Shown here in pieces: positions 26,471 through 48,515 of a stretch of DNA of 64,000 nucleotides. The stretch spans positions 64,001 to 128,000 of the forward strand of contig CAVSGM010000009.1 of assembly GCA_963727485.1 (NCBI GenBank). The letters are read 5' to 3'. Both the position numbers and the translations under genes were made by a program. The stretch is from an uncultured delta proteobacterium. GTDB taxonomy: Bacteria > Myxococcota > Myxococcia > SLRQ01. Below the pieces are notes generated by a model. That model saw nothing but the letters and a program-made list of their open reading frames with translations, was not told where the DNA came from and searched no databases. The number at the start of each line of letters is the position of its first letter. The first letter of the stretch is position 1.

Positions 26471-28609
26471 CTACTTGAGGGTGACATCCGCCGCCGGCTT
26501 GGTGCGGTAGTTGGCGTCGACGTAGTCCATCAGCTCGAAGAGGCTGTCGGCGTAGGGCGTCTGGTCGGCGCTGCCCATGCCGGTCCGGTTCACGTAGAAG
26601 CTGCCGGCGTGGCACTCCCGGTGCCACTTTGAGCCGAAGGTCTTCCCCGGAGTCTCGTCGCAGTCGCGGTTCCCCTGGTCGTCGACCATGCAGCACCGCC
26701 CGTCGACGTAGACGACGATCATCTTCTGGAGGAGACCGTCGGCCTCGTAGCCGTCGATGACCAGGTTCAGGGCGCCCATCCCCTGGGGGTCCTGGCCGTA
26801 GCCGTGGAGGAAGTAGAGCACCGGGTAGGTGAGGTCGGCGTTGGCCGGGTCGTCGTAGCCCGGCGGCAGGGCGATGAAGAAGTCGCGCTTCGAGCCCAGG
26901 GACGCGCTGTCGTAGGAGAGCGTCTTGCTGAGGGTGTCGAAGTTCCACTGGGTGACCGGGGCGTAGTCGCCGTCGGGCCACCGGGCGCTCAGCCAGTCGA
27001 AGAAGGTGTTGAACCGGTTGATGACCTCGGTGCCGGTGCCCACGTGGGCGCCGTCCCCGCTGCGCCACTGCTTGTCGGTGGCGCCGACGGTGCCGTAGAG
27101 GAGCAGGGACCGCCCCGGGACCTTGGCGAGATCGAGGTTCTGCCAGGCGTAGGTGCCGTTCCAGTCGCCGGAGAGGCTGGGGAGCGCGGTGAAGTCCTGG
27201 TACCAGCTCGAGGCCTTCGGCCGCCTCGCCGAGAGGGCTCCGAAGACCTGGCTGGCGTTGACCCCGAAGTTGAAGATGTCGCGGATGCCCCCGTCGAGGT
27301 AGTAGCCGACCCGGTGGACGGTGGCGTCGCTCCAGTTCTCGATGGCGGTGCGGGCGTCGTGGGCGAAGAAGTTCTTCTCGTTCGCCGACATGTCGTACTT
27401 CCCGTTGCCCTCGCCGAAGTCGCCGGTGTTCGGCACCCCGTCGAGGCCGTCGTCGGCGTAGGTCTCGCCCTGCTCCCACTTGAAGTCGTGCTCGGTCCCG
27501 GTGGGGTTGGTCTGCCAGCTGTAGTCGTCGCCGTTGGGGTCGGGGTCGGTGCTCGGGTCGTAGGGCCCGGTGGCGCCGGCGGCGACGCAGCCGCCCTTCC
27601 CGTCCTCCTGGGGATTGGCGCAGCCGTCGACCCCCGTGTCCTCGAAGCGCTCGGCGGCGTTGACGATCAGCGGCTCGCCGTAGTCGCGCTTCCCGTCGCC
27701 GTCGTAGTCCACCGCCAGGGCGATGCGGATACGCTGGTGGTGGGGCTGGCAGGGATCGTAGGCGCCCTTCTCCGAGTAGTAGACGTCGGGCCACTTGGCC
27801 TTGAGGGTGCTCTTCGAGGGGGTGATCGCAGGGCCGTCGGCGCCGCAGAAGGCGTCCGGGGTCTGGCCGGAGCAGAAGTCCACGGGCTGGCCGGTCTTCT
27901 GGCAGACGGTGATGGGCTCCTCGCCGTCACAGAAGGTGACCGCGTCGAAGCGTCCGTCGGGGTTGTACTCGGCGTTGTAGACCGGGTGGGTGCCGCCGTG
28001 ATCCGTGCCCTTGATCACCACCGGGTTGGCGCAGGTCCAGCTGTCGTCGACCCCCGGCGGGAAGAAGGGGCTCGCGGCGTTCTCGTAGGCGGGGTTGCCC
28101 AGCGCCAGGGAGAGGTCCTCGAAGAGGTCGATGTAGGCGCTGCGATCGAAGGTGCCGCCGTTGTCGTCGAACCACCAGTCGTTGAAGCTCGAGGGGTGCT
28201 CGAAGGGCTGGGTGGTCGCCGGGTGGATGGCGCAGGCCTCGATGGTGGCCTTGTCGTCGAGGATGCTCGTGTCCCCGGGGTGGTCCTTCAGGAGCTTGAG
28301 GTAGTCCTGGTAGGTGCAGAAGCCGCCGAGCTCCTGGGTCTGGAGGAAGTGGAGCATGTAGGCGGCGTCGAAGGGCCCGCCGAGGGCCCCGAAGGCGTCG
28401 AAGCGGTCGGCGTGCTCGGGGCCGACCGCCGAGGTGCCGATGGCGCCCATGCTCACCCCGGCGAGGGCCCGGAAGGTGTAGTGGCGGACCTTCGGCTGGG
28501 TCTTGCCGCCGGTGCCCCCGTCCGGGGTCCCGCCTCCCTGGTTGGGGCCGCAGGCGGCGACGAGACCCGAGAGGAGGACGACGGGGAGGAGACCGGCAGG
28601 CACACGCAT
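26471..28609 (-). CDS. Lipoprotein esterase-like alpha/beta hydrolase with permuted motif order and a large Cys/Asp-rich insert
   Basis: Lipobox VAAC; RALAGVSMG near the N-terminus; YYLDGGIRD; GDGAH; C-terminal LPPGY...YPVLYFLHGYG. Confidence 0.75.
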   Translation of the reverse strand: MRVPAGLLPVVLLSGLVAACGPNQGGGTPDGGTGGKTQPKVRHYTFRALAGVSMGAIGTSAVGPEHADRFDAFGALGGPFDAAYMLHFLQTQELGGFCTYQDYLKLLKDHPGDTSILDDKATIEACAIHPATTQPFEHPSSFNDWWFDDNGGTFDRSAYIDLFEDLSLALGNPAYENAASPFFPPGVDDSWTCANPVVIKGTDHGGTHPVYNAEYNPDGRFDAVTFCDGEEPITVCQKTGQPVDFCSGQTPDAFCGADGPAITPSKSTLKAKWPDVYYSEKGAYDPCQPHHQRIRIALAVDYDGDGKRDYGEPLIVNAAERFEDTGVDGCANPQEDGKGGCVAAGATGPYDPSTDPDPNGDDYSWQTNPTGTEHDFKWEQGETYADDGLDGVPNTGDFGEGNGKYDMSANEKNFFAHDARTAIENWSDATVHRVGYYLDGGIRDIFNFGVNASQVFGALSARRPKASSWYQDFTALPSLSGDWNGTYAWQNLDLAKVPGRSLLLYGTVGATDKQWRSGDGAHVGTGTEVINRFNTFFDWLSARWPDGDYAPVTQWNFDTLSKTLSYDSASLGSKRDFFIALPPGYDDPANADLTYPVLYFLHGYGQDPQGMGALNLVIDGYEADGLLQKMIVVYVDGRCCMVDDQGNRDCDETPGKTFGSKWHRECHAGSFYVNRTGMGSADQTPYADSLFELMDYVDANYRTKPAADVTLK

Positions 28610-28699
28610 GACCGCCAGCCTACCAGGGGGCCGGCCCCCCGGACCAGCCATGGCGCTCGCCCCCCCAGGCGCTAGCGTCCCGGTCGCCCGGGCCCGGGG

Positions 28700-33351: not shown

Positions 33352-35574
33352 CTAGAGCGACGCGATCCAGTCGGCGAGGGCCGCCGCCCCGGCGGGCGGG
33401 GGCACCCCGGCGCCGAGGGCGTCGAGGGCCCCGGCCGCGGGCCCGGGATCGGCCCCGGCCTCGGCCCAGGCGAGGATCCGGCCCACGTCCGGGCGCGCGT
33501 CCGCCGGCGGCGGCGTCGCCACCCGGAGGGCGTCGGCACCGGCGACCAGCACCACGGCCCGGCGATCCACCACCCGGGCCCGGGTGGGACGCAGGGGCCC
33601 CGGGTGGTCCACCAGGGCCCGGGCCACGTCGGCGGCGAGGCGCAGGGCCAGGGGCCTCGGTGGCCTCGCCCCGAGGACCTCGGCGAGGGGGCGACCCTCG
33701 ACGAAGGCCCAGACCACCAGGTCCCCGTCGGCCTCGAGGTCGAGGAGCGCCTGGAGGTTGGGGTTCCCCGCCCGGGCCAGGGCGCCGAGGCGGGCCCGGT
33801 AGGCCTCGGGATCGGCGTCGGGGATCCGCTCGAGGACCACGTGCCGGGGAATCAGCGTGTCCCGGGCCAGGGCCACCCGGTCGCCGAGGGGGCGCACCAC
33901 CGACCACCGCCCCGAGGGCGCCGAGCGCGGCGCCCCGGGGCCCACCGGCACCGCGCCCTCCCCCATCGCCGACGCCGAGGCGACCCCGGTCGGCGAGGGG
34001 CCCGTGGCCGCCGCCGACGGCCCCGCGGGCAGGGGCAGGGCCTCGAGGGCGGCGGCGAAGGCGTCGGCGTCGGGGAAGCGGCCGGCCGGGTCCACCGCCA
34101 GGGCCCGGGCGAAGAAGGCGTCGACCTCGGCGCCGAGGCCCGGGACCCGGGCCGACGGAGGCGCCGCCCCCCGGGCCTGGGCGGCGATCACGTCGGGCCC
34201 GGCGAAGGGCAGCTCGCCCACCGCCGCCCGGTAGAGGGTGGCGGCGAGGCCGAAGAGATCCGACGGCCCCCCGAGGGCGTCCCCGGCGAGCTGCTCCGGG
34301 GACATGTAGGCCATGGTCCCGAGGAGGGCCCCGGTGACCGTCTGCTGGAACGAGAGGAGGTGGGCGGCCCCGAAGTCGCAGAGGTGGGCCCGGTCGGCGC
34401 CGTCGAAGAGGATGTTCTCGGGCTTCACGTCCCGGTGGAGGATCCCCCGGCGGTGGGCGGCGCCGAGGGCCCCGGCGATGGCCACCCCCAGGGCCCGGAC
34501 CTCGGCGAAGGGCAGGCGCCGGCCCCCGCGCACCCGCTGTGCCAGGGTGCCGCCGGGGAGGAAGGCCATGGCCAGGTAGCCCCGGGCCGGGTCGGCGTCG
34601 ACGATGCGCACCAGGCTGGGGTGGGACAGGGCCCGGGCGATCCGCGCCTCCCGGAAGAACCGGTCCACCGCGTCGCCGGTGGCCGAGCCCCGGGCGAGGA
34701 GCTTGAGGGCCACCCGGTCCCCGGTGGCGAGCTCGGTGGCGAGGTAGACCTGTCCGGCCCCGCCGGCGCCGAGGAGCCGCTCGAGGCGGTAGCGCCCGGC
34801 CACCGTGCGCCCGGCCTCGGTCTCCTCGCCGGTCTCCTGGAGGTCCTGGGCCAGGCGCGCCAGGAAGGTGCGGTGGTCCGCCGGGGGATCCGGGAGGGTC
34901 GGCGCCAGCTCGGCCCACACCGCCTCGCACGCCGCCGGGTAGCCGAGGGCGGCGAAGGCCTGGAGACGGAGGACCTGGGCCGCCTGGCCCCGGGCCCCGC
35001 CCCGCCGGGCCACCGCCTGGGCGAGGCGGCCGGCGTCCTCGGGGCGGCCGAGGCGCAGCTCGACCCGGGCCAGGGCCAACGCCGCCGCGTCCACCTCCGC
35101 CACCGGGGCCACGCCCCGGATCCCCGCGAGGTGGGCCTCGAGGGCCTCGGCGGCCTCCCGGGGCCGGCCGAGGAAGGTGAGCAGCCTCGCCGCCGCGCGG
35201 CGGTCCCCGGCCCGGGCGTAGGCGGCGGCGGCGCCGGCCAGATCCCCGGCGAGCTCCAGGAGGCCCGCGGCGGCGGCGTCCCGGCCCGCGGCGACGCAGT
35301 CGGCGGCGAGCCGGCGCCGCACCGCCCGTCCGTCGGGGGCGCCGTCGAGGGCGCGGCGCCGGTCCTCGGCGGCCGCCTCGAAGTCCCGGGCCAGGAGGTG
35401 GGCCCGGTGGGCCCGGAGCAGGTCGCCGCCGTGGCGGGCGCAGGTGGCCTCCCGCCCGGGCAGGGACAGGCGGGCATAGAGATCGGCGGCCTCGCCGTGG
35501 CGCCCCTCGGCGCAGAGGGCCTCGGCGGCCGGGAGGAGCTCGCCCCGGGCGACGAGCGCGCTCACGTCCGCCAC
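33352..35574 (-). CDS. TPR-like repeats + Ser/Thr kinase + degenerate second kinase-like domain
   Basis: LGAGGAGQVY, VALK, HRDVKPENIL, DFG, GTMAYMSPE; GTG start with GGAGG SD at 35581-35585; overlaps the upstream gene. Confidence 0.85.
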   Translation of the reverse strand: MADVSALVARGELLPAAEALCAEGRHGEAADLYARLSLPGREATCARHGGDLLRAHRAHLLARDFEAAAEDRRRALDGAPDGRAVRRRLAADCVAAGRDAAAAGLLELAGDLAGAAAAYARAGDRRAAARLLTFLGRPREAAEALEAHLAGIRGVAPVAEVDAAALALARVELRLGRPEDAGRLAQAVARRGGARGQAAQVLRLQAFAALGYPAACEAVWAELAPTLPDPPADHRTFLARLAQDLQETGEETEAGRTVAGRYRLERLLGAGGAGQVYLATELATGDRVALKLLARGSATGDAVDRFFREARIARALSHPSLVRIVDADPARGYLAMAFLPGGTLAQRVRGGRRLPFAEVRALGVAIAGALGAAHRRGILHRDVKPENILFDGADRAHLCDFGAAHLLSFQQTVTGALLGTMAYMSPEQLAGDALGGPSDLFGLAATLYRAAVGELPFAGPDVIAAQARGAAPPSARVPGLGAEVDAFFARALAVDPAGRFPDADAFAAALEALPLPAGPSAAATGPSPTGVASASAMGEGAVPVGPGAPRSAPSGRWSVVRPLGDRVALARDTLIPRHVVLERIPDADPEAYRARLGALARAGNPNLQALLDLEADGDLVVWAFVEGRPLAEVLGARPPRPLALRLAADVARALVDHPGPLRPTRARVVDRRAVVLVAGADALRVATPPPADARPDVGRILAWAEAGADPGPAAGALDALGAGVPPPAGAAALADWIASL

Positions 35575-37421
35575 GTCGGCCCTCCGAGGTTCCGGGCCAC
35601 CCGCCGGGCCTCCAGGCGCGTGGCCACCCGCTCGAGGAAGCGGTGCACCGGCCCCGGGGGCTCGGCGGCGAGGTGGCGCTCGAGGACCGGCAGGCCCGGC
35701 TCCGAGACGTTGGCCGAGATGGCGACCCCCAGGTCGTCGGCGAGGGCCGGGTCCACCCCCTCCCGGAGGGTGTGGAGGAGGAAGTCGAGGGCGTCGCGGC
35801 TGGGGCCGGCGCGGTCCATGCCCACCACCCGGCCCAGGGCGAGGAGGGCCTCCCGGCGCACCGCCAGGTCGGCGTGGTCGCGGTAGAGCCGGACCAGGGG
35901 CCCGAAGGCCCCGGGGAAGGCGAGGTAGCGCAGCGCCCCCACCGCCGCCTCCCGGACCTCCGGCGACGGGTCCTCCACCGCCCGGTCCACCAGCTCCAGG
36001 CTCCCCCGGAAGGGCAGGAAGCGCAGGGACCTGGCCACCGCCGCCCGGAGCGCCGGGTCCGGGTCGTCGAAGGCCCGGGCGAGGGGTGGCAGGGCCAGCG
36101 GCGTCCCGAGGCGGCCGAGCTCGGCGATGCGGTCCGCCCGGCCATCGGGCCCCTCGTCGCCCCCCGCCGCCCGCCCCAGGCAGATGACCAGGCACCGCCG
36201 CCGGACCACGTCCCAGTGGCGCGGATCGCCCACGGCGTCGGGGACCGGGCTCAAGGGGTCGGCGGCGGCGTCGGCGGCGGTGGCGTCGGTGCGCCAGGTG
36301 TCCGGGTAGGCGGTGTCGTCGGTGAAGTACCCATTGAACGCCCAGACCGCCGGGCGGGCCGGGCCGTCGGGGGCCCGCTCGGCGAGGCGGGCGTAGCGTT
36401 CACGCCGACCCTCGCCCAGGGGCAGGGCCGCCAGCCGGGCGTAGGTGGCCTTCACGGCCCCGGCGTCCCCCCGGCGGTTGTGGCAGTCGAGGGCGGCGAG
36501 GTGGGCGTTCTCGGCGAGCTCGGTGGCCCCGAGGGCCAGGTGCCCCTCGGCGGTGGCGGTGAAGGCGTCGGCGGCCCGGGCGAGGAAGGCGTCGGCGTAG
36601 AGCATCCCGCCCTGCCGGCACCAGCCGCTGGCCTCCCGGAGGACCTCGGCCGCCGCCTGGGTCTCGCCCATCTCCAGGGAGGCCTCGGCCAGGTCGTGGA
36701 AGTACTGGAGGGCGAGGAACCGGTGCCCCCGGTCCCGCATGTAGCGGATGCAGTTGAGGAAGCCCTCGGCGAGGTTCTCGTGGGAGCCGGTCTTGCGGCC
36801 CACGTGGATGAGGGCGTGGTAGCAGGAGAGCGCCCGCTGCCCCTCCCCGGCGCGCTCGGCCCGGTCGGCCTCCTCCTCGAGGAGGACGATGGCCCGGGAC
36901 AGGCGCCGGGCGTCCACCCGGCCACCGGCGTCGTCGGCGCCGGAGAGGGCCTCGTTGAGGAGGGCCAGGGCGGTGAGGTAGGCGTCGCCGGCGGCCTCGA
37001 AGCCCTCGGCGGCCCGGTGCCACGCCTGCCCCGCCCTCCCCGCCTCCCCGGCGGCCTCCCAGGCGGCGGCGGCCCGGGCGTAGGCGCCCACCGCCTCGAA
37101 GGCCTCGGCGGCCGAGCCGTGGCGCCCCGCCCGGGCCAGACACCGGGCGGCGTCGGCGCCGCGCCCGGCCTGCACCCAGGCGGCGTGGGCCCCCACGGGA
37201 TCGAGGAGGTACTCCCGCGCCACGGCGGCCATCGCCGGGTGGCCCGAGGCCTCGGCGGCGTCGGCGAGGGCCAGGAGCCACCCGTCGTAGACCGGGTCGG
37301 CGTGGTGGAGGTCCGCGAGGAGGCTGCGCCAGGCGGCGATGGCGGCGTCGAGGTCGCCGGCCTCGAGGGCGGTGGTGGCGGTGGCCTCCAGGCGTCGGGT
37401 GTCCTCGAGGCTCGGGATCAC
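35562..37421 (-). CDS. TPR/SNAP-like helical repeat protein with C-terminal HEAT (PBS-lyase-like) repeats
   Basis: AAEAFEAVGAYARAAAAWEAAG repeats; DDPDPALRAAVARSL, EDPSPEVREAAVGAL, DLAVRREALLALG; GTG start overlaps the vWA stop (GTGA). Confidence 0.8.
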   Translation of the reverse strand: MIPSLEDTRRLEATATTALEAGDLDAAIAAWRSLLADLHHADPVYDGWLLALADAAEASGHPAMAAVAREYLLDPVGAHAAWVQAGRGADAARCLARAGRHGSAAEAFEAVGAYARAAAAWEAAGEAGRAGQAWHRAAEGFEAAGDAYLTALALLNEALSGADDAGGRVDARRLSRAIVLLEEEADRAERAGEGQRALSCYHALIHVGRKTGSHENLAEGFLNCIRYMRDRGHRFLALQYFHDLAEASLEMGETQAAAEVLREASGWCRQGGMLYADAFLARAADAFTATAEGHLALGATELAENAHLAALDCHNRRGDAGAVKATYARLAALPLGEGRRERYARLAERAPDGPARPAVWAFNGYFTDDTAYPDTWRTDATAADAAADPLSPVPDAVGDPRHWDVVRRRCLVICLGRAAGGDEGPDGRADRIAELGRLGTPLALPPLARAFDDPDPALRAAVARSLRFLPFRGSLELVDRAVEDPSPEVREAAVGALRYLAFPGAFGPLVRLYRDHADLAVRREALLALGRVVGMDRAGPSRDALDFLLHTLREGVDPALADDLGVAISANVSEPGLPVLERHLAAEPPGPVHRFLERVATRLEARRVARNLGGPTWRT

Positions 37422-38902
37422 CGCCCCGCCTCCCGGGCCCTCGACGCCGGAAAGCGGACCCCGTCCCCGCCGGCCAGGGCGCCGACGATGCGCAGGGCCG
37501 CCTGCCGGCGCTGGTGCGCCTCGGCGAGCTCCTCCCGGGTCACCGCCCAGTGGTGGTGGAGCTCCGGGAGGTAGTCGAGGGCCAGGGGCCCGTCGACCAG
37601 GACGTAGATCCCCGAGAGGGTCGCCACCGACGCCAGCTCGGCCACCAGGGACACCGGCAGGTGGCACTGGCCGTGGGTGATGAAGGTGATGCTCGCCTGG
37701 CGCCCGGCGTCCCGGCGCAGGCGCCCGACCTCGTGGAGGAGCGCCTGGAACACCCGCGCGTAGCTGCGCCCGCGCTCCGGGCGGTGGGCCAGGAGGTAGG
37801 GGAGCCGGTGGTCGTGGCCGGTGATGCGCATGGCCTCGTGGAGGCGCGAGTCGAAGAACCGCAGCTGCACCTCCTCGCCGGTGGCGGTGAGCCGGCGGAT
37901 GAGGCCGAGCGCCAGGCCCCGGGCGAAGATGGCCCGGGCCCCGCGCATGGAGGCGCTGCCGTCCACCAGCACCAGGTGGACCCTCCGCTCGTGGTCGGGC
38001 TTGGCCTCCCGGCCGTAGTAGAGGAGCTGGCTCTCGGCGTACTTGTGGGCGAAGACCTCGTCGGGATAGGCGAGCTCGGTGGGCACCAGGTGGTCCGGGT
38101 TCCCCCGCCGGCTCACCCCGGCGACCCCGTCCACCGAGAGCTGCTGGATCCCGCGGCGCCGCCGGGTCTCGTCGAGCTGGGGCAGCAGCTCCAGGGAGAA
38201 GTGGATGACCTCGGCGGCCGCCGGGTCGTCGAGGAGGCGGTAGAGGTCCAGGGCCCCGAGGCCCCCGGCGAGGGACACGTCCCCGGCGAAGATCCCGGCG
38301 AGGCGCAGGGTGTCCACGTCGATGCGCTCGGCGCTGGTGACCACCTGGAAGTGCCGGTCCATGGCGGTGCGCAGGAAGCGGACCCAGGCCTCGGTCCCGG
38401 CCTCGGCGAAGCGGCCCGGGAGATCGTCGAGGTCGTAGGCCCGGGCGTCCACCGGGAGGTCCTGGCCCAGGTGCCCCCGGGCGGCCTGGGGGCCGAGGGC
38501 GTCGAGGACCGGCTCGAGGATCCGGGCCACCAGGGCGGCGACGGCCTCGGGGCCGAGGTCGAGGAACGGCGCCCGGTGGCAGAGCTCGGACCCGGCGAGC
38601 TCCTCGAGGAGCGCCTTCCAGCCCATCACCAGGGGCAGGAGCGGGTGTCCCGGCCCCACCCCGGCGGCCCGGAGGACCTCGGGGTCGGGGCCCAGGCGCG
38701 GGGGCCGCCCGTCGGCGAGGAGGCGGCCGAGGTCGTGGACGAAGACCAGGGGCACGTGGTGGCCGATGCGGTGGACCAGGTTGTGCCACAGGGCGGCCCG
38801 GGCCACCGCGTCGGCGCCGCCCCGCGCCGGGAGCACCGAGAGGACCAGGCCCACCGCGGCCCGCTCCGCCGGGATCGCCGGGGTCGCCGGGGTCGACGCC
38901 AC
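37418..38902 (-). CDS. vWA-domain protein (MoxR partner)
   Basis: GNPDHLVPTELA..FAHKYAESQLLYY pre-vWA segment; VLVDGSASMRG (DxSxS); RFFDS; FITHG. Confidence 0.85.
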   Translation of the reverse strand: MASTPATPAIPAERAAVGLVLSVLPARGGADAVARAALWHNLVHRIGHHVPLVFVHDLGRLLADGRPPRLGPDPEVLRAAGVGPGHPLLPLVMGWKALLEELAGSELCHRAPFLDLGPEAVAALVARILEPVLDALGPQAARGHLGQDLPVDARAYDLDDLPGRFAEAGTEAWVRFLRTAMDRHFQVVTSAERIDVDTLRLAGIFAGDVSLAGGLGALDLYRLLDDPAAAEVIHFSLELLPQLDETRRRRGIQQLSVDGVAGVSRRGNPDHLVPTELAYPDEVFAHKYAESQLLYYGREAKPDHERRVHLVLVDGSASMRGARAIFARGLALGLIRRLTATGEEVQLRFFDSRLHEAMRITGHDHRLPYLLAHRPERGRSYARVFQALLHEVGRLRRDAGRQASITFITHGQCHLPVSLVAELASVATLSGIYVLVDGPLALDYLPELHHHWAVTREELAEAHQRRQAALRIVGALAGGDGVRFPASRAREAGR

Positions 38903-38905
38903 CGC

Positions 38906-40090
<1,185 letters not shown>

Positions 40091-40097
40091 CGGTTCC

Positions 40098-41237
40098 TCA
40101 CTCTAGCGCGGGCCGGCCTTCGGGGTAGCCCATGAGGTGGAGGCCCGCCCCGAGGGTCTCGGTGACGACCGACTCCTCGCTCGCCGTGTCCACGGCCCCC
40201 GCCGCGGCGAGCCACCCGTCGAGGCGCGCCGCCAGGGGGACCCCGAGCTCGTCGGCGGTGGGGAGGCCGAAGACGTCGCCGCCCCGGTGGAGCACCTTGT
40301 AGAGGGCCAGGTACCACCGCCCCTCGCCGTGGCCCGGCTCGGCGACGGTCTCGGGCTCGCCCCGGGTCAGGGCCGCGTGCTGGCCCAGGAGGTGGAGGTG
40401 GTAGAGGGCCTGGAGGAGCCGGACGACCTCGGCCCGGGGGGCGCCGGCGCGGACCCGGACCAGGAGCGCCCGGGTGAGGACGCCGCCGAGGTGGCTCGGG
40501 TCCGGGGCCTGGAGCCAGCGGTAGAGGATGCCCCGGGCGAGGTCCGGGTCGGCGAGCCACCGGGCGGTGGCGCCGAAGGTGAACCTTGGCGCCGGGCGGC
40601 CGGCGGTGAGCAGATCGGTGACGGGGCTGGCGAGGAGGAGCCGGGCCAGGAGGCCCCGCCGGTCGGGGACGCCGAAGGTCTGGACCAGGGGCACCCCGAA
40701 CCGGTGGACCGCCACCTGGCGCAGGCGCGGGAGGCGGGTCATGCGCTTCGGAGGGGTCCGGCCGGGGTAGTGCCGGCGCCCGAGCCAGTAGATGACCTCG
40801 GCGTCCATGCGCTCGGCGTCGAAGAGGGGGCCGATGAGGGTGTGGGCGGCCAGGGCGTCGTCGACGGTGTCCGGCAGGCGCAGGCGGGTGGCGAGCTCCA
40901 GGGTGTAGCCCAGCGCCGCCTCCAGGCCCCCGGGGCGGGCGTCGGCGCGACCGAGCGCCGGGTGACCGAGGGCCACCAGGTTGTGGAGGACCGCCACCCG
41001 GAGGACGTCGGTGGGGCCGAGGGGGAGCGGCGTCGCGAGGGGGACCAGCTCGCCGGCGAGGCGACCCCGGGCCTGGGCGAGGCCGTCGGGGGCCCGGTTG
41101 CGGAGGATGAGGCGCCCGAGGGCCTCGACCTCGTCGGCACCGAGGGGCAGGCCCACCCGCACCCGGCCCCCGGCGAGCCACGCCGGGAGGAAGCCGTCGA
41201 GGACCGCCTGGGCGGCGCCGGTGGCCTCCCGGATCAC
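40098..41237 (-). CDS. Uncharacterised helical protein of the MoxR-vWA locus
   Basis: 379-aa ORF with GC3 bias, translationally coupled on both sides; motifs LHNLVALGHP, ASPVTDLL. Confidence 0.75.
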   Translation of the reverse strand: MIREATGAAQAVLDGFLPAWLAGGRVRVGLPLGADEVEALGRLILRNRAPDGLAQARGRLAGELVPLATPLPLGPTDVLRVAVLHNLVALGHPALGRADARPGGLEAALGYTLELATRLRLPDTVDDALAAHTLIGPLFDAERMDAEVIYWLGRRHYPGRTPPKRMTRLPRLRQVAVHRFGVPLVQTFGVPDRRGLLARLLLASPVTDLLTAGRPAPRFTFGATARWLADPDLARGILYRWLQAPDPSHLGGVLTRALLVRVRAGAPRAEVVRLLQALYHLHLLGQHAALTRGEPETVAEPGHGEGRWYLALYKVLHRGGDVFGLPTADELGVPLAARLDGWLAAAGAVDTASEESVVTETLGAGLHLMGYPEGRPALE

Positions 41238-42700
41238 CCGCCGCCTCCGGTGGGGAACCGGCGTCCCCAGAGGGGAAAGGGCCCGGCGTCGTCGAAGACC
41301 ACCTTGGGCGCCCCGGCCACCTCGCCGGTCTCGGCGACCGCCGCCGGGGGCACCTCCACCTGGGCCACCAGCCGGCGCGAGAGGGGCATGAGGGCCGACT
41401 CGGCGACGGTGAAGGGCGCCGCGTCGCCGCCGGGGAGGACCGCCAGCTCGCCCTGCCCCACCCCCAGGGCCTCGGCGACCAGCGCCGGGGGCAGGCGGGG
41501 GACCACGACCTGTCCCAGGGGCACCAGGACCTGGGCTCCCACCCGGCGCAGCGGCAGGCCCAGGGGCAGCTCCTCCACGGCGCCCTCGCCCACCACCAGG
41601 AGGCCCCGGTCGAGGCTCACCGCCCGGTAGCGCTCGAGGGTCGCCGGCGGGAGGGCGTAGACCAGGTGGCGGAAGGCCGAGAGCTGCCGCGGGGGGATGA
41701 GGAGGGCCTCCGGGGGCCCGAGGCCCCGGTGGTCCGGGGCGAGGCGCAGGGGCACGTCCACCGGCTCACCGGGGTCGGCGGCGGTGGCCCCCGCGGCCTC
41801 GGCGCCCAGGTCGGGCCGCACGCCCCGGCGCAGGGGGAGCCAGCCGAGCTCGCCGTGGATCACCCGGGCCCCCGGGCGGTTGCCCAGGAAGAGCCAGAGG
41901 GCGTCGTCCCCGAGGGCGTCGGCGCAGGCGGCGAGGTCGAAGGGGTGGCGGAAGCCCTGCTCCACCGCGGCCCGGGTGCCCTCGGGGACCAGGAGCCGCA
42001 CTCCCGGGGTGGCGCCCAGCCGATGGCGCACCCGGGGCGGGAGATCCCGGGCCCGGTAGAGGAAGAGCTCGCCGTCGTCGACCTCGGCCCGGACGACCTC
42101 GGCGTCGACGCCGCAGCGCCAGAGGTAGGCCTCGAGGTCGGCCCGGAGCCCCGGGGGCGCGAGGACCAGGAGGGTCTCGGGGTCGAGGCCCCGGCGCCGG
42201 ACGGGCTCGGGGGCGAGGCGGAGGAGGAGGCTGCGCAGGGGCAGGCCCTCGACCACGGCGTAGGGACCCTCGGCGACGCGGCCGTAGAGGACGACGTCGG
42301 CCTCGCCCTCGACCAGGCGGTCCACGTCGTAGCCCAGGGGGCTCTTCCGGTCCCGGTAGCGCACCAGGTGCCGGGCCTCCCCGGTGAACAGCTCCCCGCC
42401 CCCGAGGCCGGCGACCCGGGCCAGGCGGTCGAGGCGCGGGGTGTCCCCGGCGTCGAAGCGGAGGAGGAACTCCACGGTGCCGAGGGCCGAGCGGACCCGG
42501 TCGACGACCAGGGCCGCGTAGAGCTCGGGCTGGGCGAGCTCGCCGGTGAGGGTCGAGAGGGCGGCGACCACCCGGTCCAGGGACGGCAGGAGCATCGCCG
42601 CCACCCGGCCCGTGGCCACCCCCCGGGCGTCCGTCTTCAGCCCGGGCGCCACGAACCGCGTCTGGTGCTGTGCGACGGGGACCAGCAAGACGACGGTCAT
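41234..42700 (-). CDS. Uncharacterised protein leading the MoxR-vWA operon (possibly a ternary-system accessory domain)
   Basis: 488-aa ORF; motifs FTGEARHLVRYRDRKSPLGYD, VEQGFRHPFDL, LVPLGQVVVPRLPP; ends PFPLWG. Confidence 0.75.
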   Translation of the reverse strand: MTVVLLVPVAQHQTRFVAPGLKTDARGVATGRVAAMLLPSLDRVVAALSTLTGELAQPELYAALVVDRVRSALGTVEFLLRFDAGDTPRLDRLARVAGLGGGELFTGEARHLVRYRDRKSPLGYDVDRLVEGEADVVLYGRVAEGPYAVVEGLPLRSLLLRLAPEPVRRRGLDPETLLVLAPPGLRADLEAYLWRCGVDAEVVRAEVDDGELFLYRARDLPPRVRHRLGATPGVRLLVPEGTRAAVEQGFRHPFDLAACADALGDDALWLFLGNRPGARVIHGELGWLPLRRGVRPDLGAEAAGATAADPGEPVDVPLRLAPDHRGLGPPEALLIPPRQLSAFRHLVYALPPATLERYRAVSLDRGLLVVGEGAVEELPLGLPLRRVGAQVLVPLGQVVVPRLPPALVAEALGVGQGELAVLPGGDAAPFTVAESALMPLSRRLVAQVEVPPAAVAETGEVAGAPKVVFDDAGPFPLWGRRFPTGGGG

Positions 42701-42747
42701 TGTAACCTGCCTTTGCCCCGGGGCGAGGCTCTGCCAAACTTGGGGGC

Positions 42748-43908
42748 GTGTCCCTCTGGGCCCGGTTCCGCTCCGCCGACTACCGCGAGGCCCTCGCCGC
42801 CGAGGCGGCGGGGGACCTCGAGCGGGCCGCCACCGCCTTCTCCCGGGCCGGGCGCCCCGGGGAGGTGATCCGCCTCCGCCGGCACCTCGCCACCGGCGCC
42901 GCCGAGCCCGCCGAGCGCGTCCGCCACCTCCGCGCCGCCCTCGCCGTCGCCGAGGGCGCCTACGTCGAGGACGCGCTCCGGACGTCCCTGCGCCAGTCGT
43001 TGGCCCGGGCCCTCGTCGCCACCCGGGACAGCGGCTCCCTGGTCCAGGCGGTGGCCCTCTACCGCGCCGAGGGCGATCACCACGGCGCCGCCGAGGCCCT
43101 CCTGGCCCTGGGGCAGGAGCCCGAGGCCCGGGCGGAGCTCGCCGCCGGGCACCTCTTCGAGCGCCTCGAGCGCCTGGACCGGGCCACCGCCCGCCGCGAG
43201 GCGTCCGAGGCCGCCCGGGACGCCGCCGCCTCCGCCGCCGAGGCCCGGGCCGACGCCGGGGACCGGGCCGGGGCCCTCCACGCCCTCGAGGCCCTCGACC
43301 CGGCGGCGGTCACCGGCGCCGCCCGGGCCCTCCGGGCGCGCCTGGTCGCCGCCCGCCCCGAGGGGCGCCTGGCTCTCGCCGCCGCCGGGACCGGGGCCGC
43401 GGTCACCATCGTGGGGACCCTCCCGGTGGTCCTCGGCCGGGGCCCGGACAGCGCCCTGCCCTTGGCCGACGCCGGGATCTCCCGGCACCACGCCCGCCTC
43501 GACGGCGCCGGGGGCGGCTTCCGCCTCGCGGACCTCGAGAGCCGCAACGGCACCTGGATCGACGGGCTCCCGGTGGGCGCGGGCTTCGAGCTCCCGGAGG
43601 CCGGACGCTTCACCCTCGGGGAGCGGTGCCGGGTGGTCTTCCGGCGCCTGGGCGAGGGGGCCCTGCTGCTGGAGGTGGAGCGGGGGCTCGCCGCCGGGGC
43701 CCGGGCGGTGGTCCTCGGGGGGCCGGCGGAGCTCGCCGGGGTGCTCCCGGGGCTGGCGCCGGTGCGCCTCGCCCTCGAGGGGGGCTGGTTCCGCCTCGCC
43801 GGCGACGGGCTGCGCCTCCAGGGGCGCCCCGTCGCCGGGCCCGTCGACCTCCTGGTGGGGGACCGGGTCGAGGTCGCGGGCTGCGACCTGGAGGTCCGGC
43901 GGCGATGA
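42748..43908 (+). CDS. TPR-like + FHA domain protein
   Basis: FHA motifs VLGRG, ISRHHARL, DLESRNGTWIDG, followed by a second FHA-like beta region (DLLVGDRVEV). Confidence 0.82.
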   Translation: MSLWARFRSADYREALAAEAAGDLERAATAFSRAGRPGEVIRLRRHLATGAAEPAERVRHLRAALAVAEGAYVEDALRTSLRQSLARALVATRDSGSLVQAVALYRAEGDHHGAAEALLALGQEPEARAELAAGHLFERLERLDRATARREASEAARDAAASAAEARADAGDRAGALHALEALDPAAVTGAARALRARLVAARPEGRLALAAAGTGAAVTIVGTLPVVLGRGPDSALPLADAGISRHHARLDGAGGGFRLADLESRNGTWIDGLPVGAGFELPEAGRFTLGERCRVVFRRLGEGALLLEVERGLAAGARAVVLGGPAELAGVLPGLAPVRLALEGGWFRLAGDGLRLQGRPVAGPVDLLVGDRVEVAGCDLEVRRR

Positions 43909-45299
43909 CCGGGGCCACCGGGGCCGACCGGGGCTGGATCCGGGCGCTGTGGGCGTGGCTCACCGAGGCGGCCGATCCCCCCGCCGGCCCGGGCCCCGCC
44001 GGCGGGGCCCTCACGGCCCCCCGGGATCCGGCCGCGCCGCCGCTCCCCGCCCGCCCCGTGGGCCCCGGCCCCGGGCCGAGCCTCCCCCCGGGGCCGGTGG
44101 GGCGCCTCGCCACCGCCGCCGACACCGGGGACGCCGCCGGGGCCCGCCGGGCCCTCGACGCCGCCGTCGACGCCGGCCTCGCCCCCGAGGCCCGGCGCTG
44201 CCTCGCGGCCCGGGACGCCGCCGACGCCCCGGTGTGGCTCCGCCTCCTCGCCGCCGACGCCGCCCTCGCCGACGACCCCGACGCCGGCCGCCGGGTCCTC
44301 GAGGCCCTCGCCGACGCCGGGACCCCGGACCTCGCCGCCGAGGCCCGGCTGCGCCTCGGCGATCTCCTCAGGGACGCCGGGGACCTCGCCGGGGCAAGGA
44401 TGCACTACGAGCGGGCCCTCGCCGTGGACCTGGACCTCCCCCGGGCCCGGGCCCTGGCCGACGCCCTGGGCACCGGCGCCGACGCCGAGGCCGCGGGCGG
44501 CCGCCCCACCCTGGTCCTGCCCCGGGCGCGGCTGGGCCCGGCGGCGGATCGCTACGTCCTCCTCCGGGAGCTCGGCCGTGGCGGCGCCGGCACGGTGTAT
44601 CTCGCCGAGGACGCGCGCCTGGGCCGGCGGGTCGCCGTGAAGGTGCTCCACCCGCGGCCCGGCGAGGCCCCTCCGGCGCGGCTCCTCGCCGAGGTCCAGG
44701 CGGCGGTGGCGGTCGCCCACCCGGGGATCGTCCGGATCTTCGACGTGGATCCCGAGCGGGGGGTGGTGGTCATGGAGCACCTCGCGGGGGGCTCCCTCCG
44801 GGACCGCCTGGTGCCCGGCGAGCCGGTGCCCCCGGCGGCGGCGGCGGGCCTGGCCCGGGGCCTCGCCGAGGCCCTGGCGGTCCTCCACCGCCGGGGCGTG
44901 ATCCATGGGGACCTGAAGGCGGGCAACGTCCTGTTCCGGGGCGGGGCCGGCCTCTCGGAGCCGGTGATCGCGGACTTCGGCCTCGCCCGGGAGGCCGGCG
45001 GCGGCCGGCGGCCCGCGGGGACCCTCGCCGCCATGGCCCCCGAGGTCCGCGCCGGCGCCGCCCCCACCCCCGCCGCCGACGTCTGGGCCCTCGGCGTCCT
45101 CCTCCACGAGGTCCTGGCCGGGCGCCCCCCGATCGCCCCCGGGGACATCCTCCAGGGGCGCCTGACCCCGTCGGCCCTCCCGGAGGCGGTCCCCGAGCCC
45201 CTCCGGCGCCTGGTCGCCGCCCTCCTCGCCGCCGATCCCGAGGCCCGCCCGGCGGACGCCGACGCGGTCCTCGCCCGCCTGGAGGCCCTCGCCGGTTGA
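43905..45299 (+). CDS. TPR + cytoplasmic Ser/Thr kinase
   Basis: ATGA overlap with the FHA gene; TPR ARLRLGDLLRDAGDLAGARMHYERALAVD; LGRGGAGTVY, VAVK, HGDLKAGNVL, DFG, GTLAAMAPE. Confidence 0.85.
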   Translation: MTGATGADRGWIRALWAWLTEAADPPAGPGPAGGALTAPRDPAAPPLPARPVGPGPGPSLPPGPVGRLATAADTGDAAGARRALDAAVDAGLAPEARRCLAARDAADAPVWLRLLAADAALADDPDAGRRVLEALADAGTPDLAAEARLRLGDLLRDAGDLAGARMHYERALAVDLDLPRARALADALGTGADAEAAGGRPTLVLPRARLGPAADRYVLLRELGRGGAGTVYLAEDARLGRRVAVKVLHPRPGEAPPARLLAEVQAAVAVAHPGIVRIFDVDPERGVVVMEHLAGGSLRDRLVPGEPVPPAAAAGLARGLAEALAVLHRRGVIHGDLKAGNVLFRGGAGLSEPVIADFGLAREAGGGRRPAGTLAAMAPEVRAGAAPTPAADVWALGVLLHEVLAGRPPIAPGDILQGRLTPSALPEAVPEPLRRLVAALLAADPEARPADADAVLARLEALAG

Positions 45300-45344: not shown

Positions 45345-46169
45345 ATGCCCCCCCGCCCCCACCCCGACCCCGACAGCGCTGTCGCACCGCGCCGCGTCCT
45401 CACCACGGTCCTCGCCGTGCTGGTGGGGGCGCTGGCGGCGCCGGTGCCGGCCCGGGGCGCCCCGGCGGCGCCCCCCCACGCCTTCGGGCCCGGGGAGGTC
45501 CTGGTCTACGACGTCCACTACGGCCCGGTCCATACGGGGAAGGCGCGGATCGCCGTGGGCGCCGACCGGCCCATGGGCGGGAAGCAGGTGTGGCCCATCG
45601 TGGTCCAGGCCCGGACCAACGACGTGTTCAGCCACGTGTTCCCGGTGCGGGACCAGTTCGTGACCCTGTGGCAGCCCAAGGCCGCCGGGAGCCTGGGCTT
45701 CGACTTCCACGCCGACGAGAACGGGCGCCGGCGCTTCACCCGCATGCGCCTCTACCCGGCGAAGGGCCGGGCGGTGGTCGAGCGGCAGGTGCCGGGCAAG
45801 GCGCCCCACCGGGCCCACTACCAGACCGGGCGGGCCGATCACGACGTGGCCTCGGCGGTGTTCTGGCTGCGCACCCGGCCCCTCCACGTGGGCGACCGGG
45901 ACCAGGTGCGGGTGTTCACCGGGTACCGGACCTGGGACCTGGTGGCCCACGTCGAGGGCAAGGAGACGGTGAAGACCGCCGCGGGCACCTGGCACACGGT
46001 GCGCGTCCGCCTCGAGACCCACTTCCACGGCAGGCTTGCGGCGCGGCACGACATCGTGCTGTGGATGACCGATGACCGAGCGCACGTACCGGTGCGGGCC
46101 GAGGCGGAGCTGGTCCTCGGCTCGGTGCAGGCCGACCTCTCGACCTACCTCCCCGGGCTCACCGAGTAG
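45345..46169 (+). CDS. DUF3108-family exported protein
   Basis: Signal peptide; FGPGEVLVYDV, DVASAVFWLR, ETVKTAAGTW, LWMTDDRAHVPVR. Confidence 0.82.
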   Translation: MPPRPHPDPDSAVAPRRVLTTVLAVLVGALAAPVPARGAPAAPPHAFGPGEVLVYDVHYGPVHTGKARIAVGADRPMGGKQVWPIVVQARTNDVFSHVFPVRDQFVTLWQPKAAGSLGFDFHADENGRRRFTRMRLYPAKGRAVVERQVPGKAPHRAHYQTGRADHDVASAVFWLRTRPLHVGDRDQVRVFTGYRTWDLVAHVEGKETVKTAAGTWHTVRVRLETHFHGRLAARHDIVLWMTDDRAHVPVRAEAELVLGSVQADLSTYLPGLTE

Positions 46170-47350
46170 GGCCCTGGGCACGGCCCTGGTGGCCGCGGTG
46201 CTCCTCGCCGGGTGCCACGGCGGCCAGGCGGCCACCGGCGCCACGTCCAAGGGCGGGAGCGCCGCGCACCCCCACAAGGCGGCGAGCGACCTGGCGACCG
46301 GGGGCGGCCCCTCCGCCGACGGCGGCACCGCCGACGCCGGCACCCCCGACGCGGGCGTCCTCCCGGGCGACCGGGCGACGCGGCGCCGGGCCGCCCGAAA
46401 CCTGTTGCGCCAGGGACACCTGAAGGCCGCCGAGGCCACCCTGGAGGCGCTCTGGCGCACCGGGAGCGACGAGGCCTCGCGCACCGACGGCCTCCTCGCC
46501 GCCGCGGCCCACGCCCGCCGCGGCGACGACGACGGGGCCCTGGCCCTCCTCGCCGAGGCCGAGCACCGGGGGCTCCCCGACGGGCACCTCGAGGACCTCG
46601 CCGCCGCCATCGCCAGCGACGTCCCCAACCCCGGGGCCCTCGCCCACCGCCTCGCCGGCGACCCGGCGGGCATCCGCACCCATGTCCGCGCCGCCCTCGA
46701 GGGGGCCCTCTACCAGCGGGCGGGGAAGCCGCGCCTCGCCATCCCCTACTGGGAGCAGGCGGCGCACCTGGCCCCGGACCAGGTGGTCTACTGGCGCCAG
46801 CTCATGCGCCTCTACGCGGTCACCGGGCACCCCCACCGCCTGGAGACGGCCCTGCGCAAGGTCGTCACCCTCGAGCCCCGGTACGTCCCGGCGCGGGTCG
46901 ACCTGGTGCGCATGCTCACCCGCCAGGGCCACGACCCCGAGGCCCGGGCGGTGGCGCTGCCTCCGAAGGGCGCCTACTCGGCCCTCGACCGGAAGGTGAC
47001 CGAGGCCGAGGTCCTCCAGCGGGCCGGCCGCGATCGCGACGCGGTGACCGCCTACCGCCGGATCCTCGCCGGTCACCCCGACGACTGCCGGGCCCGCCTC
47101 GGGCTCGGGCGCGCGCGCCTCGACGCCGGCGAGGTGAAGGCCGGGGCCCGAGCCCTCTACGACCTGGTGGCCCACCGGGTCGGGGGGCGCCCCTGCGACG
47201 TCGCCGAGGCGGCCCGCACCCTCCTCTCGGATCCCCGCACCAAGGCCGGGATGGGCAAGCGCCTCGCCCACCTCGCCGCCCACGGCGGGGGCGCCGAATC
47301 CGGCGACCCTCCGGGCCATGGTGAAGGCGTCCCGGCCGACCGGCCGGTGA
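46072..47350 (+). CDS. TPR-repeat lipoprotein (start uncertain; apparent +1 insertion near the C-terminus)
   Basis: Lipobox LAGC and several TPRs. Removing one A from GAATC at 47296-47300 gives ADPATLRAMVKASRPTGR* with normal GC3 and removes the overlap with the next gene. Confidence 0.68.
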
Positions 47351-47498
47351 ATAGTCGGCCGGGCGCTGCGTACCAACGGGCGTGCCGCGCCTGGCCCGAG
47401 CCGGCAGGGGATGGTCCCCTGGGGCGGGCGCGGCACAACTCCTCGTTTGCACCGGGCGCTCGCCGTGGGCGAGCATGGGTGCCCTGGACGGTTCCCCG

Positions 47499-48515
47499 AT
47501 GCGCCTGACCCTCGTCGTCGCCCTCGTGGCCCTGTGCGCCAGCGGCTCCCGCGCGGCCCGCGCCGCTGCGGGGGACGGCGGCGTGGCGACGCAGGCCGCG
47601 GCAGGGCCCGCCGATGGGGGCGCGAGGGCGCCGGACACGGCGGCGCCGGCCCGCACCTCCCACCCGGCCCAGGCCTCCCACCCGGCCCAGGCCTCCCATC
47701 CGGCCCCCGCCTCCCAGGTGTCGCACGCCTCCCATCCGGCCCCCGCGAGCCCGGGTCCCCGGGGCGTCGCCCCCTGCGGCGGGCCCCCGCCGGCGGCGGG
47801 CCCGGCGCCCTTCGCCCCCGGCGAGCTCCTCCACTACGACCTCGACGTCCTCGGGGTCCGCGCCGGCACCCTGGACCTCGACGTCGCCCGGGACCCGGCC
47901 GGGGGCTACGACTTCGGCGCCCTCGCCCGGTCCAACACCTTCTTCGAGAACATCCGCAAGGTGCGCGGCCAGGCCACCTCCTACGCCTCGGCACGGACCC
48001 TCGAGCCGCGGCGCTACCGCGAGGACGCCACCGAGGACGGGGTGAAGAAGTGGGCCGAGGTCCACTTCAATCCCAAGGACCACCAGGTGGACATCGCCTA
48101 CGCCATCGGCAGCCACCGGCGCCGGGTGCGCTACCCCCTGCGCTACGGCCCCTTCGACGTGCTCTCGGTGGTCTACTACGTGCGCACCCTGCCGATGAAG
48201 GTCGGGGAGCACCTCTGCGTGGACCTCTACGGCAACCGGAAGGTCTGGCGGCTCCGGGGCCACGTCGACGGCGAGGAGTGGATCGACACCCCGGCGGGGA
48301 AGTTCAAGACCTGGCGGCTGGTGGGCGAGGCCTGGCGCCTGGACATGCCCAAGTACCACCGGCCCATCCACCTCTGGATCAGCCAGGACGCCCGGAGGCT
48401 CCCGGTGGCGGTGGTGGGCGAGATCGACCTGGGGCCGGTCCGCGCCCAGCTCTCGCGCATCGGCCCGGCGACCGCCGAGTCCCGCCCGCCCGACTACGGC
48501 GGCGGAACCTGGTAG
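47499..48515 (+). CDS. DUF3108-family exported protein with a repeat linker
   Basis: Signal peptide; FAPGELLHYDL, DVLSVVYYVR, EWIDTPAGKFKT, LWISQDARRLPV. Confidence 0.82.
   Translation: MRLTLVVALVALCASGSRAARAAAGDGGVATQAAAGPADGGARAPDTAAPARTSHPAQASHPAQASHPAPASQVSHASHPAPASPGPRGVAPCGGPPPAAGPAPFAPGELLHYDLDVLGVRAGTLDLDVARDPAGGYDFGALARSNTFFENIRKVRGQATSYASARTLEPRRYREDATEDGVKKWAEVHFNPKDHQVDIAYAIGSHRRRVRYPLRYGPFDVLSVVYYVRTLPMKVGEHLCVDLYGNRKVWRLRGHVDGEEWIDTPAGKFKTWRLVGEAWRLDMPKYHRPIHLWISQDARRLPVAVVGEIDLGPVRAQLSRIGPATAESRPPDYGGGTW
47658..47747 (+). repeat. In-frame 18-bp tandem repeat, five units (SHPAQA-like)
   Basis: TCCCACCCGGCCCAGGCC x2, then three degenerate copies. Confidence 0.8.

Follow-up and report, generated by a model that had tools for sequence, protein, structure and literature searches.

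Two MoxR-vWA pairs, RavA-ViaA and NorQ-NorD, are described in the literature drawn on here as maturing or repairing a specific protein complex. Four types of larger, ternary MoxR-vWA system were put forward as computational predictions by Kaur 2020 (PMC7159879). The parts of that paper used here take a highly variable component as the first criterion of a conflict system, name an inactive kinase domain and repeat scaffolds as effector traits, and give a GxxxTAKS P-loop as a trait of the MoxRs of the FtsH and beta-propeller types. A preprint (PMC13622651) describes, in the sections used here, the Esr cluster of MoxR, vWA, kinase and FHA genes, said to be confined to Actinomycetes, which answers an epibiont by threonine phosphorylation of an FHA protein and has a surface-anchored, secreted Ig-repeat/beta-propeller sensor, a transglutaminase, a phosphatase and variable sensor and output domains. 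Here we analyse an eight-gene locus at positions 33352..45299 of a 64,000-nucleotide (nt) stretch from an uncultured delta proteobacterium (contig CAVSGM010000009.1, positions 64,001 to 128,000; the whole stretch is called the window), in which MoxR and vWA genes lie together with genes for two Ser/Thr kinases (K1 and K2), an FHA protein (F), a TPR-HEAT protein (H) and two further proteins, A and B. Its sequence relates the locus to the FtsH and beta-propeller ternary systems; it belongs to neither type and constitutes a new subtype. The account we lean towards, tentatively and with close to even confidence, is a lineage-wide, vertically kept cytoplasmic phospho-switch around a MoxR-vWA remodeller of the same stock as those two types.

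Composition of the locus and its kinship with ternary systems

A sequence-only reading of the window had proposed six minus-strand genes with overlapping junctions or gaps of at most 7 nt, head-to-head with an ATGA-coupled pair, and this arrangement was borne out by the open reading frame (ORF) list and a codon-bias gene caller. The minus-strand junctions are -4 nt (A/B), +7 nt (B/MoxR), +3 nt (MoxR/vWA), -4 nt (vWA/H) and -13 nt (H/K1, or -4 nt counted from the next GTG); F and K2 share 4 nt (ATGA), and 47 nt lie between the divergent ORF starts of A and F. The window's genome has one full-length copy of each of the eight genes. Pfam agreed with the domains that had been named from the letters, finding MoxR, HEAT in H, FHA in F and Pkinase in both K1 and K2.

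The MoxR AAA+ ATPase (38906..40090, minus strand) matches bpMoxR (PF20030) at 263.7 bits and has the GxxxTAKS P-loop with intact Walker B and Arg-finger motifs. Among 58 MoxRs, 55 keep GPPGTAKS and all keep the Walker B and Arg-finger motifs. Against NCBIfam RavA the window's protein scores 191.5 bits, below the equivalog cut-off of 681. A FastTree phylogeny of 48 MoxRs, in which the system type of the comparators was checked by Pfam for L159, L207 and L209 only, places the 24 sequences from the present system in one clade (support 0.876, moderate), separate from three FtsH-type MoxRs and from another 17 clustering with a MoxR linked to bpX5/bpX6. The vWA protein (37418..38902, minus strand) has a helical N-terminal domain followed by a vWA domain with an intact MIDAS-type DxSxS motif, a motif kept in kind by most vWA proteins of the family. 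The window's copy has no Pfam match of its own and is not among the 8 of 11 family members that match ivWA (PF19997, best E 2e-6); compared by hhalign with a canonical ivWA protein, the family gives 94% over 124 columns, which makes the two related, if remote. All 11 aligned vWA proteins stop about 20-30 residues past the vWA domain, and the Pfam scan of the window proteins and the family alignment returned no beta-propeller family in them.

Protein A adds a third link. Homologues were found in 55 instances, and of the 12 scanned, six lie above the fvmX7 cut-off and five above the bpX2 cut-off. The window's own A matches bpX2 only (E 0.015); orthologues in four of five genomes pass the fvmX7 cut-off, the window's A not being among them, and the A profile matches a canonical fvmX7 protein with 79% probability. 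Two single proteins of the A family, P0003 and P0039 (alignment A1), exceed both cut-offs over overlapping regions, which suggests that the fvmX7 and bpX2 Pfam families are homologous. The link to ternary systems that the sequence-only reading had drawn is sharpened by fvmX7/bpX2, ivWA and the GxxxTAKS motif.

Of the general ternary traits, the locus has a MoxR AAA+ gene coupled to a vWA gene and conserved third components (A, B and H), and, by whole-protein identity, it has no highly variable effector or sensor module. No FtsH-type AAA+ third component was found among the eight proteins, and no recurrent FtsH-type ATPase was seen by eye in the 32 commonest neighbour clusters of 81 loci, whereas it was present in the controls L159 and L209. 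The third component of the beta-propeller type combines a transmembrane (TM) segment, TPR and a propeller, while H has TPR and HEAT only. Neither VMAP nor inactive STAND families were among the Pfam matches of the eight proteins or of the alignments of B, H and vWA, and the vWA is unfused. The locus is therefore of neither the FtsH nor the beta-propeller type, lacking FtsH and any propeller, and we class it as a new subtype because both defining third components are missing and its MoxRs form a clade of their own. The expectation that it would not match a characterised system gene for gene held, and we found no description of the cluster among the papers searched; Figure 1-source data 1 of Kaur 2020 (PMC7159879), which lies outside the parts of the paper used here, may list such loci.

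H (35562..37421, minus strand; 619 amino acids (aa)) combines a TPR-like solenoid with HEAT repeats recognised by Pfam; across 35 members it shows TPR and HEAT only, with no TM segment by hydropathy. K1 (33352..35574, minus strand, from a start at 35574 or 35565) has an N-terminal helical solenoid, an intact HRD Ser/Thr kinase whose activation loop carries two conserved threonines (window Thr412 and Thr414), and a C-terminal part that is kinase-like (hhalign 82%) but without Gly-loop, catalytic Lys, HRD or DFG, in line with the degenerate second domain proposed earlier. K2 (43905..45299, plus strand) joins TPR to a Ser/Thr kinase that keeps Lys, Asp, Asn and DFG; the Arg of HRD is often replaced (HGD in the window copy) and the activation loop is short. 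F (42748..43908, plus strand) consists of a helical solenoid, an FHA domain and a C-terminal beta region, an architecture that is constant across loci. The FHA residues G-R, S-x-x-H and N-G-T serve phosphothreonine binding, and they are invariant in 8 of 8 F sequences. A threonine in the K1 linker, considered as an FHA target site, was set aside: it is kept in three family-f1 sequences and lost in Polyangia.

On a simple hydropathy scale, not a trained predictor, none of the eight proteins has a convincing TM helix or signal peptide (maximum 19-residue Kyte-Doolittle (KD) value 1.27-1.77). The earlier reading that none has a TM helix or signal peptide stood, while the contrast drawn with three other kinases of the window failed for the ORF at 52897-54345 (plus strand), where the maximum KD is 1.27 and no TM segment appears as read. 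The C-terminal third of that ORF looks wrong-frame, so a frameshift is possible. In the zinc-ribbon-like Ser/Thr kinase gene at about 795-2920 (minus strand), the kinase domain and the TM-bearing C-terminal part lie in different frames, and a frameshift near 1980 is probable, perhaps an assembly indel.

B (40098..41237, minus strand; 379 aa) belongs to a large unnamed family with 633 representatives at 50% clustering. None of 38 members scanned matched a Pfam family, PDB sequences held no solved relative, and ESM Atlas gave leads under 0.9 only. The AlphaFold2 model (predicted local distance difference test (pLDDT) 91.8) is largely helical with one long protruding beta-hairpin; Foldseek returned nothing at E<=0.001 and VIA-align a best Z of 5.9, and these missing matches are no demonstration of a new fold. 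Two identifications of B were rejected: it does not match the long canonical fvmX7 protein of which it might have been a piece, and as for fvmX6, that family was not found in G000, G128, G402 or G403. The A model (pLDDT 88.2) has two ferredoxin-like alpha/beta domains. Foldseek gave nothing at E<=0.001, ESM Atlas came back blank and PDB sequences yielded nothing usable. With VIA-align the best Z was 5.8, and matches to the YpbH C-terminal domain and to ACT/PII-like domains tie with unrelated ferredoxin folds, so this likeness, obtained by comparing the whole-protein model, is a lead only.

The ORF of A from ATG (41234..42700) encodes the 488 aa reported earlier. That ORF was upheld, but the true start is probably TTG 42688 (41234..42688, minus strand), giving 484 aa, because homologues start there and ATG 42700 falls inside a conserved -10 box, the predicted sigma-70-type hexamer at 42699..42704 (minus strand) immediately upstream of A. 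In 44 of 50 A loci, a count inflated by related loci, TAnnnT lies 5-11 nt upstream of the start codon of A. The corresponding figures are 93 of 330 for other first-in-unit genes, 40 of 309 for operon-internal genes and 4% for shuffles; before the F start the hexamer occurs in 7 of 14. The pattern predicts that A is transcribed from a primary-sigma (sigma-70-type) promoter as a near-leaderless transcript. Across the 81 + 16 fetched loci, 28% of first-in-unit genes have TAnnnT just ahead of the start codon, which points to frequent leaderless transcription in these myxobacteria.

Distribution and inheritance of the gene set

Searching species genomes with the vWA alignment gave at least 539 stretches, and neighbours were counted in the best 80, many of them cut by contig ends. 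These 80 come from metagenome-assembled genomes named Polyangia, Kofleriaceae, Haliangiales, Sandaracinaceae, Myxococcales or Deltaproteobacteria. Within 10 kb of the vWA gene we found H in 65, MoxR in 50, B in 39, A in 37, F in 8, K2 in 6 and K1 in 1, making H its most faithful neighbour. The five core genes (A, B, MoxR, vWA and H) occur together in 36 of the 80 loci and vWA is alone in 12; a further 16 loci around H, taken from long contigs, held all seven genes in five cases. The kinase, FHA and HEAT genes do, then, co-occur with this MoxR-vWA pair in other genomes, as the sequence-only reading had required. Its expectation of a conserved eight-gene synteny held for seven genes and failed for K1. 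K2-F stands head-to-head with A-B-MoxR-vWA-H in 13 loci, the window included, from two classes (Myxococcia and several Polyangia lineages), although two groups among them, of two and three loci, are near-identical relatives (93-99% identical). K1 adjoins the cluster only in the window's family: G128, of another genus, has all eight genes in the same layout, and G283 has six on one contig, with F beside the A start on another. Of 36 genomes searched, 10 have full-length K1 (G128, G283, G401-G407 and G623), which is unlinked in the eight Polyangia (G401-G407 and G623).

Among 401 sampled genomes of the window's phylum, 27 gave vWA matches, 22 of them strong. The gene was present in 11/11 genomes of f25, 2/2 of f20, 1/1 of f28 and 3/5 of the window's family, and was near-absent from the genomes searched of two large families (one weak match in 172 for f2, none in 67 for f3). 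We then take 48 hand-picked genomes, comprising 21 with strong vWA matches, 5 weak, 15 negative and 7 Polyangia. A was found in 21/21, 0/5, 0/15 and 7/7 of these groups, H in 19/21, 0/5, 0/15 and 7/7, and full-length F in 14/21, 0/5, 0/15 and 7/7; the 20 genomes with weak or no vWA, all without F, include two of the window's own family. A kinase match reaching the TPR part of K2 occurred, among the matches listed, in 22 of 24 system-positive and 0 of 4 negative genomes, though some may be K1-like, and K1 was absent from all nine negative genomes tested. In the Polyangia class (the class of G401; G644 counted, and genomes taken irrespective of completeness), H is present in 168 of 251 genomes and single in all but five; five H-negative members gave no vWA or A match in searches run without a positive control.

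The genes also co-occur after the cluster has broken up, usually with one copy per genome. In f25, f28 and f20 the vWA gene and an orthologous MoxR lie alone at separate loci, A and B are adjacent in 8 of 9 scattered A loci from other classes (B was not seen by A in G109), and F-K2 remains paired in four Polyangia loci away from the core. At every locus where A was complete enough for this to be judged, B lay beside it. In Kofleriaceae-type loci (L084-L144) the core gene order is kept with unrelated genes inserted between members, an apparent intermediate stage of operon break-up. Surviving sub-pairs and a layout common to two classes are hard to attribute to chance, and the eight genes are a functional set.

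Several neighbours accompany the set locally. A conserved protein of about 155 aa and unknown kind lies between vWA and H in one Polyangia lineage (L066, L074, L076, L078, L079 and L085), and a 304-aa Cys-rich lipoprotein with no Pfam match follows H in 30 of 81 loci (L083-L144, Kofleriaceae-type). The lipoprotein was rejected as a ninth component and assigned to local synteny, since G000 has no match to it and it does not appear next to H in other classes. Common neighbours in Kofleriaceae, recognised by eye, look like what we take to be housekeeping genes (RlmN-, Ndk- and SucD-like). Directly after K2 in the window, at 45345-48515 (plus strand), a gene for a TPR protein that begins like a lipoprotein sits between two DUF3108 genes, a group not seen alongside the system in other genomes. 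Downstream of K1, at 26471-28651 (minus strand), lies a gene for a secreted esterase-like protein of 700 aa, which is also present in G128 (L030:16848-18965), indicating that the chromosomal context is conserved in the family.

Trees of vWA and H, built from 50 of 78 loci holding both, share 31 of 47 splits where at most two are expected at random, and their strong splits never contradict each other (a quick tree method, with long branches flagged); the agreement points to co-inheritance, because the two genes are neighbours. The vWA tree groups sequences named Kofleriaceae/Haliangiales, those named Sandaracinaceae and those of the window's family, and from this grouping, rather than from a species tree, we infer that the system probably descends vertically. 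Mean pairwise identity over the 13 complete loci, judged on whole proteins, is 66% for MoxR, 53% for vWA, 48% for K2, 47% for H, 44% for A, 40% for F and 39% for B; close relatives are 93-99% identical in all seven genes, and lengths are constant. There is no hypervariable component, since identities are even over the 13 loci.

What the set may do

The phospho-switch that we favour has its basis in observed co-occurrence, layout, intact catalytic and binding motifs, single copy number, even conservation and the lack of any membrane part by the hydropathy scan; its steps are proposed as follows. H, F, K1 and K2 would assemble via their helical solenoids, and K2 (mostly non-RD) and K1 (RD, with activation-loop Thr) would phosphorylate threonines within the complex, with F binding phosphothreonine and so locking an 'on' state. 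Using its metal site, the vWA domain may hold on to a peptide from H or from a client, and the complex could be pulled apart or reset by the MoxR ring. The A-B pair might serve as adaptor or ligand sensor. The cue would probably be an intracellular stress or threat signal, and the output may be an altered state of a host protein and not nuclease or peptidase killing. The proposal of the sequence-only reading that the TPR-HEAT protein is the sensor loses ground, H being among the most conserved parts.

Several observations weigh against this account. K1 is absent at E<=1e-60 from 13 system-positive genomes of other classes and from 4 of 12 Polyangia, F was missed in 7 of the 21 strong-vWA genomes, and K2 is not beside F in G283; the kinase arm may therefore be an accessory to a five-gene chaperone. 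The co-occurrence counts overstate coupling, because kin are not independent and share gene sets. The K2 linker threonine (Thr202 in the window), a candidate phosphosite, is kept in 11 of 16 sequences only. The solenoid similarity that speaks for assembly (hhalign 87-88% for H-K1 and F-K1) may stem from Ala-rich helical composition, H-F reaching only 13%. No gene for an input, substrate or output travels with the set in the neighbour clusters of the fetched loci, where other neighbours are lineage-specific. Finally, the Esr cluster relies on a different, surface-anchored sensor, as described in the part of the preprint used here (PMC13622651).

A rival reading is a housekeeping chaperone, in which MoxR-vWA with A, B and H would mature or repair one complex and the kinases and F only tune it. 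The set is single-copy and lineage-wide and tolerates scattering, even genomes as small as 2.8 Mb (two in f33) retain A and vWA, A is preceded by a -10 box of sigma-70 type, and the five-gene core layout (36 of 80 loci) is better kept than the kinase arm. However, no client gene is linked in any lineage, the nearest relatives of A, vWA and MoxR belong to predicted conflict systems, F-K2 stands head-to-head with A in both classes, and two large families (172 + 67 sampled genomes, one weak match) grow without the set. On balance we regard this explanation as rather doubtful.

An anti-phage or anti-parasite conflict system, with solenoids that sense, a MoxR-vWA pair that switches on and kinases and pseudokinase as effectors or decoys, shares the ancestry of the FtsH and beta-propeller types; also in its favour, whole families are without the set, and 3 of 5 genomes of the window's family have it. 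An inactive kinase domain and repeat scaffolds count as effector traits in the part of Kaur 2020 used here (PMC7159879), and Esr indicates, in the part of the preprint used here, that an order-wide conserved cluster can be defensive (PMC13622651). Against it, the first criterion of Kaur 2020 as given there (PMC7159879) asks for a highly variable component, and identities here run evenly from 66% (MoxR) to 39% (B). Relatives of vWA were not found in viral contigs or plasmids, the window has no tRNA, and the 2-kb bins across the locus have 74-80% guanine plus cytosine against 70-79% elsewhere in the window, so the locus is not below its flanks. PADLOC on the window gave generic kinase-domain matches only. 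Full retention while dispersed over separate loci is unusual for defence islands. The defence label with which the locus was first reported, and the patchy distribution that was to be looked for, are weakened on all these counts (f25 11/11, 168 of 251 in the Polyangia class, single copy, completeness despite scattering, no hypervariability), and we consider a conflict role unlikely, noting that it and the phospho-switch overlap if the cue is a threat. That two or three unrelated units (a five-gene chaperone, F-K2 and K1) are adjacent here by chance is very improbable: F-K2 and K1 do lie away from the core in most Kofleriaceae-type genomes and shared gene sets among kin overstate coupling, but F-K2 is head-to-head with A in Myxococcia and several Polyangia lineages, F is absent in 20/20 vWA-weak or negative genomes and K1 in 9/9 negatives tested.

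Because many uncultured myxobacteria keep a single, slowly changing copy, the set resembles a core signalling machine that escaped notice more than it does an anti-virus island of the fast-changing kind. Extending the phospho-switch, we consider it possible, with more doubt than belief, that the set is an ancestral Myxococcota surveillance machine and a fifth MoxR-vWA ternary type, a former conflict system since domesticated as a core signalling pathway, in which the AAA+ ring assembles and resets a cytoplasmic, all-solenoid kinase-FHA platform. If so, its loss from the families to which the usual model myxobacteria belong would explain why it was overlooked, and fvmX7 and bpX2 would be unified as one ancestral adaptor of this MoxR clade. 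Every arm has mutable catalytic residues (Walker B, MIDAS, kinase Lys and FHA Arg), and with soluble, single-copy components this makes remodelling by the MoxR clade, and its coupling to phosphorylation, directly testable.

Comparison with described MoxR-vWA systems

At least 539 genome stretches encode the vWA protein, yet B has no family and A has remote ones only. The locus has in common with the simple-type FtsH ternary system, as given in the part of Kaur 2020 used here (PMC7159879), a GxxxTAKS MoxR, a vWA domain behind a helical N-terminal domain and an fvmX7-like gene. A canonical FtsH locus in G401 (C89, L159) runs fvmX6, fvmX5, FtsH, fvmX3-analog, fvmX7, MoxR, ivWA; the window keeps the last three of this order (fvmX7-like, MoxR, vWA) with B inserted. 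Unlike the FtsH system, it has no FtsH-type ATPase, fvmX5, fvmX6, fvmX3-analog or radical SAM gene, and has instead B, TPR-HEAT, FHA, two kinases and an intact DxSxS. In the canonical loci L159 (G401:C89) and L209 (G125:C15), FtsH carries Peptidase_M41 and the fvmX7 protein is about 700 residues longer; WGR-domain genes follow in L159. G401 and G125 each carry a canonical FtsH system in addition to the one described here, in G401 at separate loci.

With the beta-propeller type the locus shares the bpMoxR match, A-family members above the bpX2 cut-off (5 of 12) and the lack of a conventional effector, and it differs in that the vWA domain is not followed by a propeller and that a membrane-spanning third component, bpX5 and bpX6 are all missing. 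The part of Kaur 2020 used here (PMC7159879) gives none of its four ternary types a fixed complement of kinases, FHA reader and TPR-HEAT scaffold. The inheritance pattern of the present set calls into question whether every one of these relatives is an arms-race system. Like RavA-ViaA, the locus has a related MoxR with a downstream vWA partner; unlike it, the MoxR is shorter and far under the family cut-off, and five or six extra partner genes are dedicated to the pair.

The Esr cluster is likened here by gene content and not by sequence homology. No surface beta-propeller sensor, transglutaminase or phosphatase of Esr type was found among the eight proteins by Pfam and NCBIfam, and the architecture of the FHA protein is constant here, without a surface sensor, in contrast to Esr as described in the part of the preprint used (PMC13622651). 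Both have MoxR, vWA, a Ser/Thr kinase and an FHA protein in one cluster, and by this analogy phosphorylation itself as the output would have an experimental precedent in Esr (PMC13622651). If the surveillance machine proposed above is real, the set would be an intracellular counterpart of Esr that works without a toxic effector.

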